DNA of 64,000 nt from assembly GCF_003991155.1 (NCBI RefSeq), contig NZ_CP031293.1. One strand, 5' to 3'. Position 1 is the stretch's first letter; every line of letters begins with the position of its first letter. Made by a program: the position numbers. Below are positions 46,901 through 49,900 of this stretch, piece by piece. This DNA is from Escherichia coli. GTDB taxonomy: Bacteria > Pseudomonadota > Gammaproteobacteria > Enterobacterales > Enterobacteriaceae.

Positions 46901-49900
46901 TTATCGCTGGGGACGTCGGGGGTCTATTTTGCTGTCAGCGAAGGATTCTTAAGCAAGCCAGAAAGCGCCGTACACAGCTTTTGCCATGCGCTCCCGCAGC
47001 GTTGGCATTTAATGTCTGTGATGCTGAGTGCGGCTTCTTGCCTGGATTGGGCCGCAAAATTAACCGGTCTGAGCAATGTTCCAGCTTTAATCGCGGCTGC
47101 TCAACAGGCTGATGAAAGTGCCGAGCCAGTTTGGTTTCTGCCTTATCTTTCCGGCGAGCGTACACCACACAATAATCCCCAGGCGAAAGGGGTTTTCTTT
47201 GGTTTGACTCATCAACATGGCCCCAATGAACTGGCGCGAGCAGTGCTGGAAGGCGTGGGTTACGCACTGGCAGATGGCATGGATGTCGTGCATGCCTGCG
47301 GCATTAAACCGCAAAGTGTTACGTTGATTGGTGGCGGGGCGCGTAGTGAGTACTGGCGTCAAATGCTGGCGGACATCAGCGGTCAGCAGCTCGATTACCG
47401 CACAGGGGGAGATGTGGGGCCAGCACTGGGCGCAGCAAGGCTGGCGCAGATTGCGGCGAATCCAGAGAAATCGCTCATTGAGTTGTTGCCACAACTACCG
47501 TTAGAACAGTCGCATCTACCAGATGCGCAGCGTTATGCCGCTTATCAGCCACGACGAGAAACGTTCCGTCGCCTCTATCAGCAACTTCTGCCATTAATGG
47601 CGTAAACGTTATCCCCTGCCTGACCGGGTGGGGGATAATTCACATCTATATATCTCAGTAATTAATTAATATTTAGTATGAATTTATTCTGAAAATCATT
47701 TGTTAATGGCATTTTTCAGTTTTGTCTTTCGTTGGTTACTCGTAATGTATCGCTGGTAGATATGGAGATCGTTATGAAAACCTCAAAGACTGTGGCAAAA
47801 CTATTATTTGTTGTCGGGGCGCTGGTTTATCTGCTTGGGCTATGGATCTCATGCCCATTGTTAAGTGGCAAAGGCTATTTTCTTGGCGTGTTAATGACAG
47901 CAACTTTTGGCAATTATGCATATCTTCGCGCAGAAAAACTCGGGCAACTGGATGATTTTTTTATCCGCGTCTGCCAGTTGCTGGCGTTAATCACTATCGG
48001 TCTCTTGTTTATCGGTGTTTTAAACGCACCTATCAATGCTTATGAAATGGTGATTTATCCCATCGCCTTTTTTGTCTGCTTGTTTGGTCAAATGCGTTTG
48101 TTTCGCTCGGCATGAGCAACATAAACCTCTTACACATTCAGGAATGAAAGGAATACTGTGATGGACAACAAAATATCAACCTATTCACCGGCCTTTAGTA
48201 TTGTGTCATGGATAGCTCTCGTTGGTGGTATCGTTACCTATCTGTTAGGGCTATGGAATGCAGAGATGCAGTTAAATGAAAAAGGATATTATTTTGCCGT
48301 ACTGGTATTAGGACTGTTTTCTGCGGCGTCTTATCAAAAGACCGTTCGGGACAAGTATGAAGGCATACCGACCACCTCCATTTATTATATGACCTGCCTG
48401 ACTGTCTTTATTATCTCTGTTGCGTTACTGATGGTAGGTCTGTGGAATGCGACGTTATTACTCAGCGAGAAAGGTTTTTATGGACTGGCTTTCTTCTTAA
48501 GCTTGTTTGGTGCAGTAGCGGTGCAGAAGAATATTCGTGATGCCGGAATAAACCCACCAAAAGAAACACAGGTTACCCAGGAAGAATACAGCGAATAATT
48601 CACATAAGCCCGGTCAGTCCAATGTGACCGGGCTTTTATTTAACTCACTAGTCTGTTTCTGTCGATTCGTTGTACCAGCATAGAAAGTAACAAACTCGCT
48701 GCCAACGTCGCGCAAAAGATCCAAATAATATCGAGTATTGGCCAGTTTTTAAGCTCAATCCCCCGGGTACGCAGCGCATGGATAATCAATGCATGGAACC
48801 CGTATATACCTAAAGAATGGCGTGATATCAGCCTAAGCCCGGGAACAGTGTGTGTATCCAGCGTGTTTTTAACCAGAGTCAATAGCGTGATTGCGCAGAT
48901 AAAAACCATCGGCCCACAGTAAAGATACCAGGTATCGGCAAAATTTCCGCGCCACTGCAATTCATATAATGTCCCGCGAGAGATAATAAATACCCCCGTC
49001 GCAAACAGTGCGGCGCACACCCACGACAGTGCTTTATGCTGTGTGTCCATCATCCCTATAGCGCGGCCCAACATGCCATACAGGATGTAGTAAAAAGTAT
49101 CGCCATTGATATATAAGTTAATTGGCAGCCATTCAAAACCGTCAATTTTCTGCGGCACTGTGTTTGGGTTAGCGATAATGCCAATCACCACCATTAGCAC
49201 CAGCAACATTTTTCCGCCGACGTTCTTCACCTGAATCAGCGGTGAAACCAGATAAATCACCGCAATCGCGAAGAAAAACCACAAGTGGTAAAACACTGGC
49301 TTTTGCAGCAGGTTTTTCAGCGCTAACTCCATATTGATGGAGGTAAACAGCGCAATGTAGAGCAGCGCAACAGTGCTATAAAACAGCAGGCATAAGCCGA
49401 TGCGCAAGAAATGGCGCGGCTGGGCGCTGCGTTCGCCAAAAAAGAGATAGCCGGAAATCATGAAAAATAGCGGCACGCTGACACGAGAGGCAGAATTCAG
49501 AACATTGGCGATATCCCATGTGACGGGGCTAACACTATGAGCATTGGTCACATACCAGGTAGTGGTGTGAATCATCACCACCATTAAACACGCTATCCCT
49601 CGCAGGTTATCAATCCAGTAAATTTTGGGCTGCATCTGTGTCTCTGTATCTGGTTAAAAAAAGTCTGACCGATAAATCATTCGGTTGGCGCACTGGAATA
49701 ATCTGAGTTTTATCACTACAGCTTATAGAGGCTTAAGGAAATTCGTAAGATATCAGCCACTATACCGATATAAATAATAAGACTCACCTGCAAACCAGAC
49801 GGTAATTTAATGATGATGAACGCTTTCTTTCCGGCAATGGCGCTTATGGTGCTTATGGCGCTAGTGGGTTGTTCTACACCGCCACCCGTGCAGAAAGCAC

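Follow-up and report, generated by a model that had tools for sequence, protein, structure and literature searches.

The genes yiaB and yiaA of Escherichia coli lie side by side in the stretch of DNA analyzed in this study, 64,000 nucleotides of contig NZ_CP031293.1 (assembly GCF_003991155.1), referred to here as the window. Both are on the + strand, with yiaB at 47774–48115 and yiaA at 48161–48598, and in the list of open reading frames (ORFs) they encode predicted four-helix inner-membrane proteins of 113 and 145 amino acids, respectively, each 100% identical to its RefSeq entry. The 1.1-kb region also matches annotated E. coli chromosomes that name yiaB and yiaA at 100% DNA identity, and the product name used in RefSeq is "inner membrane protein". 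The gene names proposed in a preliminary description of this DNA are thus correct, its coordinates of 47774–48598 run exactly from the start codon of yiaB to the stop codon of yiaA, the three peptides that it quoted are all found in the translations, and "tandem" is a proper term for the arrangement. The gene upstream in E. coli is xylB, on the same strand, and the gene downstream is wecH, which is convergent. The sequence GGAG is found 8 nt 5′ of the yiaB ATG.

Both proteins belong to a family that has been recorded previously. The Pfam model PF05360, "yiaA/B two helix domain", which has a gathering threshold of 26.6 bits for the whole-protein score, gives 135.5 bits for YiaA and 43.1 bits for YiaB, with two stretches matched in each. 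The paralogues are told apart by the NCBIfam models, with each scoring above the cut-off of its own model and lower on that of its paralogue: NF008482 (YiaA, cut-off 150) gives 197.8 bits for YiaA and 44.9 for YiaB, and NF008492 (YiaB, cut-off 130) gives 169.9 bits for YiaB and 75.9 for YiaA. These are the same genes as yiaB and yiaA of E. coli K-12 (PF05360, NF008492, NF008482 and TCDB 9.B.44, YiaAB), with no difference in the genes themselves. That the two genes, with the hairpin architecture and the history of two nested duplications described below, have been identified correctly is considered very probable.

The repeated unit is a hairpin of two helices, present twice in each protein and on the + strand throughout. 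In YiaA, module 1 covers 48185–48358 (amino acids 9–66; helix 1, turn, helix 2 and the motif QKTVRD) and module 2 covers 48371–48544 (amino acids 71–128; helix 3, turn, helix 4 and the motif QKNIRD). In YiaB, module 1 covers 47783–47935 (amino acids 4–54; helix, the turn GLWISCPLLSGKGYF, helix) and module 2 covers 47954–48106 (amino acids 61–111), a degenerate hairpin that reads GVLNAPINAYEMVIY and in Escherichia is without the W and the KG of the turn motif. A hidden Markov model (HMM) of the module, made from YiaA only, recognizes the YiaA modules with independent E-values of 2.6e-37 and 2.1e-36, and those of YiaB with 3.1e-7 and 1.7e-4, respectively.

Alignments of these segments were made with the Smith-Waterman algorithm and BLOSUM62, and were compared with 2000 composition-preserving shuffles. 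The N-terminal and C-terminal halves of YiaA align with a score of 102 against a shuffle mean of 24.6 (z = 16.5), and no shuffle of the 2000 scored as high. This is the self-alignment against shuffled controls that the preliminary description had named beforehand as the decisive check on its claim of duplication within and between genes, and its proposal of two module copies in the 145-residue protein is borne out. YiaA and YiaB give one collinear alignment over all four helices (score 133, z = 17.0, 0/2000 shuffles). By module, YiaA module 1 with YiaB module 1 scores 77 (z = 10.2) and YiaA module 2 with YiaB module 2 also scores 77 (z = 11.2), with no shuffle as high in either case, and YiaA module 2 with YiaB module 1 scores 61 (z = 6.5). 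There is no match between YiaA module 1 and YiaB module 2 in the same test (z = 0.2). Stricter decoys were added because shuffles lose the block structure of membrane helices; these were 55 real hydrophobic windows of 58 amino acids from seven long ORFs in the same window, and their maximum score was 47, compared with the 102, 77, and 77 observed.

These controls bear directly on the idea that the likeness reflects convergence, or a composition shared by hydrophobic helices in general, and not descent. All of the segments are indeed hydrophobic, with a mean Kyte-Doolittle value of 0.56–1.41, and the two halves of YiaB align with each other no better than chance (z = −0.2, shuffle test), as such an idea would lead one to expect. 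However, with 0/2000 shuffles and 0/55 membrane decoys matching the observed scores, convergence is already refuted by the controls. The matches are, moreover, collinear and centered on the specific motif GLWN, EKG[YF]Y, and QKxxRD, the curated Pfam model finds both proteins twice, and the module 2 motif is retained in the YiaB of Citrobacter and Salmonella. Convergence is therefore left with practically no probability, and common descent of the modules is the reading followed here.

The alignment of YiaA with YiaB from end to end means that YiaB has two modules. The preliminary description had given the 113-residue protein a single related module; the relationship stands, at z = 10–17, but the count does not. 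With the module HMM, two modules are recognized in the YiaB of E. coli and likewise in 9/9 other sequences of the YiaB group, including six named orthologues, with independent E-values for module 2 in the orthologues ranging from 5e-9 to 1e-3. The turn motif that has decayed in Escherichia YiaB module 2 is retained in Citrobacter and Salmonella YiaB as GVWNAPL..EKG.Y, for example in GVWNAPLSPLEKGLY.

Predicted structures agree with this division. The AlphaFold 2 (AF2) models have a mean predicted local distance difference test score (pLDDT) of 86.3 for YiaA, with helices at residues 10–33, 38–66, 73–96, and 101–129, and 89.0 for YiaB, with helices at 5–26, 30–55, 61–84, and 89–112. In the models each protein forms a helix-turn-helix twice, with turns of 3–5 residues at the GLWN/EKG motif, and hydropathy likewise gives four hydrophobic segments. 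Lysine and arginine are concentrated in the loop between the modules and in the C-terminal tail. Having two helices in each repeat, with the basic residues in these positions, suggests that both hairpins insert in the same way, and the most plausible topology places both protein ends in the cytoplasm, with the hairpins in the same orientation. The unit is a hairpin of approximately 58 residues, made up of a transmembrane helix, a tight turn probably facing the periplasm, a second helix, and a basic boundary motif probably facing the cytoplasm. The turn motif is G-L-W-N followed after a few residues by E-K-G-[YF]-Y, and the boundary motif Q-K-x-x-R-D. The hairpins may pack as a four-helix bundle with pseudo-two-fold symmetry, which would amount to a hairpin dimer fused covalently.

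Conserved residues of YiaA are found in the turns (G30, L31, G42, and Y44 in the first; L94, N96, E103, K104, G105, and F106 in the second) and at the boundary that follows each hairpin's second helix (Q59, K60, R63, and D64; Q122 and K123), with F116 also among the conserved positions. In the conservation analysis, the helix cores of YiaA and YiaB have no conserved polar or acidic residue, and small residues are plentiful in the helices (GG, GLFSAAS, SLFGAVA). The glutamate of the second, presumably periplasmic, turn (YiaA E103, codon 48467–48469; YiaB E91, codon 48044–48046) is the only residue that is invariant in all 46 aligned YiaA and YiaB sequences, and in YiaB it is invariant even though the rest of the second-turn motif has decayed in Escherichia.

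The YiaAB family (TC 9.B.44) has been listed previously as a two-helix element duplicated to four, alongside the c-subunits of ATPases (PMC3061005, Saier group). The four helices from a duplicated two-helix element by which TCDB 9.B.44 is defined are what is found here, as seen from the z-score of the YiaA halves (16.5), the decoys, and the grouping of modules by position in 115/118 described below, and so are the two transmembrane helices with a conserved short linker that define PF05360 (AF2, hydropathy, and conserved linker residues). The c-subunits of F- and V-type ATPases (TC 3.A.2), which are grouped with YiaAB as examples in the same paper, resemble YiaA and YiaB in that a two-helix hairpin has been duplicated in frame to give four helices with the same hairpin orientation, and a triplicated hairpin is also found among them. 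YiaA and YiaB differ from them, however, in having no sequence match or specific fold match to them, no conserved intramembrane carboxylate, and no ATPase genes in their context, the neighbors being xylB, wecH, or unrelated genes. The likeness to the c-subunit is one of architecture only, and YiaA and YiaB do not have the features that define that family.

The internal duplication, from two helices to four, is ancient; that of the gene came later and is confined to the Enterobacteriaceae. This order is evidenced through a set of 59 proteins with two modules, comprising 45 diverse representatives from a library clustered at 50% identity, seven YiaA orthologues, and seven YiaB orthologues, which yielded 118 modules. 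In a neighbor-joining tree of these, one split divides first from second modules in 115/118, and YiaB module 1 lies closer to the first module of YiaA (0.734 vs. 0.847), as YiaB module 2 does to the second (0.773 vs. 0.877). As the modules cluster by position, the hairpin duplication is older than both the radiation of the family and the split between yiaA and yiaB. The repeat period in YiaA is 63 codons (189 nt). Likeness at the DNA level is left only at the LGLWN codons, at 47832–47850 in yiaB and at 48243–48261 and 48432–48450 in yiaA, where repeat finding lists the copy in YiaA module 1 (+ strand, 48243–48261) with the other two as its partners; the two copies in yiaA are 189 nt apart and 84% identical. 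With so little likeness remaining in the DNA, both duplications must be old.

One result weighs against this order, namely that the two YiaA modules are more alike (102) than either pair of corresponding modules from YiaA and YiaB (77). On its own it could suggest that a gene for a single hairpin was duplicated first, with each copy then doubling internally and independently. The difference is better explained by a faster rate of change in YiaB, given that YiaB module 2 finds its match in the second module of YiaA and not in the first. An early duplication of a single-hairpin gene is also contradicted by the grouping of modules by position across the family and by the occurrence of four-helix YiaA well outside the taxa that have YiaB, and among the single-module proteins found there is no genuine ancestral single-hairpin member. 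Such an order of events is considered extremely improbable.

The history that best accounts for these data begins long ago, when two hairpins were joined by a tandem duplication in frame (period 63 codons) into a four-helix protein, before the family radiated. The whole four-helix gene would then have been doubled in an ancestor of Escherichia, Salmonella, Citrobacter, and Klebsiella, giving yiaB-yiaA between xylB and wecH. The copies afterwards diverged unequally, with YiaA conserved and YiaB evolving faster under purifying selection.

The distribution of the genes places the second of these events. E. coli, Citrobacter youngae, Salmonella enterica, and Klebsiella pneumoniae share the order xylB-yiaB-yiaA-wecH. 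In Hafnia, Yersinia, and Providencia, yiaA stands alone, in three contexts unrelated to one another, and yiaB does not adjoin it. A search for YiaA returned more than 7900 database proteins, with 524 representatives in the 50%-identity library; a search specific to YiaB returned only 139 database proteins, of which the named ones are from Escherichia, Shigella, Citrobacter, and Klebsiella. The best matches of YiaB are the YiaA proteins of Enterobacterales, all at approximately 43–49 bits. Within E. coli, part of the yiaB-yiaA region is present in 5425/5426 complete genomes and both genes are intact in approximately 5370/5426.

How the second copy came to lie beside the first is a matter on which the sequences speak less clearly, and it is a further point against the proposed history that they would fit duplication in place and insertion of a copy alongside alike. 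Transfer or translocation may have brought one copy next to the other; in favor of this, yiaA is found at unrelated loci outside the Enterobacteriaceae, so that the gene does move, it is patchy at the xylB-wecH locus among close relatives, and no DNA-level similarity is left that would reveal a tandem event. Conservation of order and strand in four genera argues against this, however, and YiaB lies at much the same distance from every Enterobacterales YiaA protein, as expected of an old local paralogue. Adjacent paralogues on the same strand are also the usual signature of tandem duplication, which thus appears to be the likelier mechanism; arrival of one copy from elsewhere is considered unlikely.

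The two copies have since changed at very different rates. Between E. coli and Salmonella, YiaA is 82% identical and YiaB 58%, and between E. coli and K. pneumoniae the values are 76 and 44%, respectively. The rate of nonsynonymous substitution (dN) between Salmonella and Citrobacter is 0.090 for yiaA, similar to the 0.083 of xylB and 0.086 of wecH, and 0.293 for yiaB. Amino acid change in YiaB is therefore about three times faster than in YiaA. YiaB is without the hydrophilic tails at the N- and C-termini, the EGIPTT linker, and both QKxxRD motifs, and it has gained a strongly conserved segment, CPLLSGKGYFLGVL, which is its module 1 motif.

A gene that has lost conserved motifs and tails, that evolves some threefold faster than its paralogue, and that is represented in the protein database by many truncated products could be a decaying relic of the duplication with no function. 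In five within-genus or close pairs for which the synonymous rate (dS) is not fully saturated, however, yiaB has a dN/dS of 0.07–0.19, values that are only approximate, given such short genes and a dS that has reached saturation in most comparisons between genera, and which to that extent count less firmly for the proposed history. The yiaB reading frame is intact in 5369/5426 E. coli genomes and in seven other species, yiaB is the one retained at loci lacking yiaA, and the module 1 motif has been strongly conserved. The gene is still under purifying selection, and the notion of a functionless relic is highly unlikely.

DNA divergence within the species is high for both genes, with yiaA 93.6–94.1% identical in some strains, for example ST131. 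The number of E. coli genomes in the 90–95% identity band is 1119 for yiaA and 1870 for yiaB. In an older paper, yiaA and yiaH were flagged as possible recombination candidates (PMC1779527).

The paralogues also differ in which of them is kept. At this locus in E. albertii, E. fergusonii, C. freundii, and K. oxytoca, yiaA is cleanly absent and yiaB directly abuts wecH (L002:3001–3385, L003:3001–3407, L004:3001–3354, and L005:3001–3384, to be compared with 48116–48639 of the window). The spacing between yiaB and wecH is 42 bp in E. albertii, 64 bp in E. fergusonii, a 4-bp overlap in C. freundii, and 2 bp in K. oxytoca. The missing copy is thus the slowly evolving one, and the fast-evolving yiaB is always kept at those four loci. 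The yiaB genes at all four loci are true orthologues. Those of C. freundii and K. oxytoca, which stand alone, were also considered as possible chimeras produced by unequal crossing-over between yiaB and yiaA, but this was rejected, as both encode full-length YiaB orthologues: the C. freundii protein is 82% identical to C. youngae YiaB and only approximately 35% to C. youngae YiaA, and the K. oxytoca protein is 66% identical to K. pneumoniae YiaB and only approximately 31% to K. pneumoniae YiaA. Upstream of yiaB on the E. albertii contig (L002:1–2744) are genes for a glucosaminidase-domain protein and an aminotransferase, not xylA and xylB.

The duplicated hairpin can also be lost again. An allele of K. 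pneumoniae yiaA encoding 84 amino acids (L015:1501–1755 and L014:1501–1755, compared with the normal L009:4001–4447) has a single difference from the normal gene, an exact in-frame deletion of 189 bp. The deletion lies between two direct repeats of 12 nt, CTGTGGAATGCC; they encode LWNA and are the equivalent of the repeat at 48243–48261. It fuses helix 1 to helix 4, and only one hairpin is left. The same make-up is seen in three metagenomic proteins (P0240, P0248, and P0261), so that the four complete-looking single-module proteins in the database are all hybrids of helix 1 and helix 4. Single-module proteins were considered as candidates for ancestral single-hairpin relatives and were rejected, with the complete-looking ones being deletion hybrids and the others matching only one module and having the appearance of truncated products or gene calls.

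It is conceivable, though rather doubtful at present, that the duplicated hairpin is still evolutionarily active, collapsing by microhomology deletion, and that the two paralogues are not interchangeable. Should the collapsed proteins act as homodimers, and should yiaB have taken over or gained a selected role, the locus would provide a natural test of the formation of a fused dimer, its reversion, and the division of function between copies.

With regard to function, it is tentatively proposed that the likeliest role is that of a membrane subunit that is structural or binds a partner and has a link to stress responses, ahead of a channel or transporter acting alone, although the probability attached to it is low. 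This preference stems from conserved residues that lie at the membrane surfaces and from the small-residue packing motifs, in the absence of conserved polar residues in the helix cores. yiaA has been described as being under sigma-32 control (PMC10519446), and yiaB and yiaA have been handled as separate transcription units (PMC10127797). Literature mentions also include binding by Lrp D114E, a SoxS site near Salmonella yiaB, a silver screen, a mutation in acid-adapted strains, and an overexpression screen for alanine export, where yiaB was not retained past the first round. One further literature match was false, being a YIDD-to-YIAA mutant.

Several results count against such a role. The literature on yiaA and yiaB gives only screen hits and regulatory mentions of this kind, no sigma-32 consensus (TTGAA N12–18 CCCAT) is present anywhere in the window, and the promoter scan gave no sigma-70-like site on the + strand upstream of yiaB or yiaA; with these scans empty, the promoters of the two genes have not been located. 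Outside the Enterobacteriaceae, no gene is kept beside yiaA in Hafnia, Yersinia, and Providencia. Assigning a function from neighboring genes was accordingly rejected, the neighbors of yiaA in these three genera being unrelated to one another. There is no sequence match or specific fold match to YiaA or YiaB in the PDB, and solved structures therefore give no lead.

Pfam, NCBIfam, TCDB, and the literature already cover the genes and their family, as well as the two-helix unit and its duplication, and with the duplication recorded beforehand in Pfam and the transporter literature the finding itself is an ordinary one. What is new here is the order of the duplications, the threefold difference in rate, the patchy absence of yiaA, and the natural allele with a collapsed repeat. 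The locus offers a clean textbook case of two nested duplications, from hairpin to four-helix protein to gene pair, followed by unequal divergence. This matters little beyond bookkeeping, but the new details could help those seeking the role of these uncharacterized membrane proteins.

Three further signals were observed around the genes. A terminator hairpin of 11 pairs followed by a T-run lies at 48606–48635, between the convergent yiaA and wecH (−21 kcal/mol, z = −6.3). Inside the yiaB coding sequence, at 48049–48067, is a terminator-like site with a 6-bp stem followed by TTTTTTGT, approximately 95 nt upstream of the yiaA start; two terminator-like sites are found in the region, compared with 1.3 expected from shuffles, and the one in yiaB may be due to chance. 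A G+C-rich hairpin of 14 bp is located at 47608–47639, 3 nt past the xylB stop codon (−21.5 kcal/mol, z = −4.5). It was not listed by the terminator scan because no T-run follows it; the xylAB transcript may have its 3′ end there or be stabilized by the hairpin.

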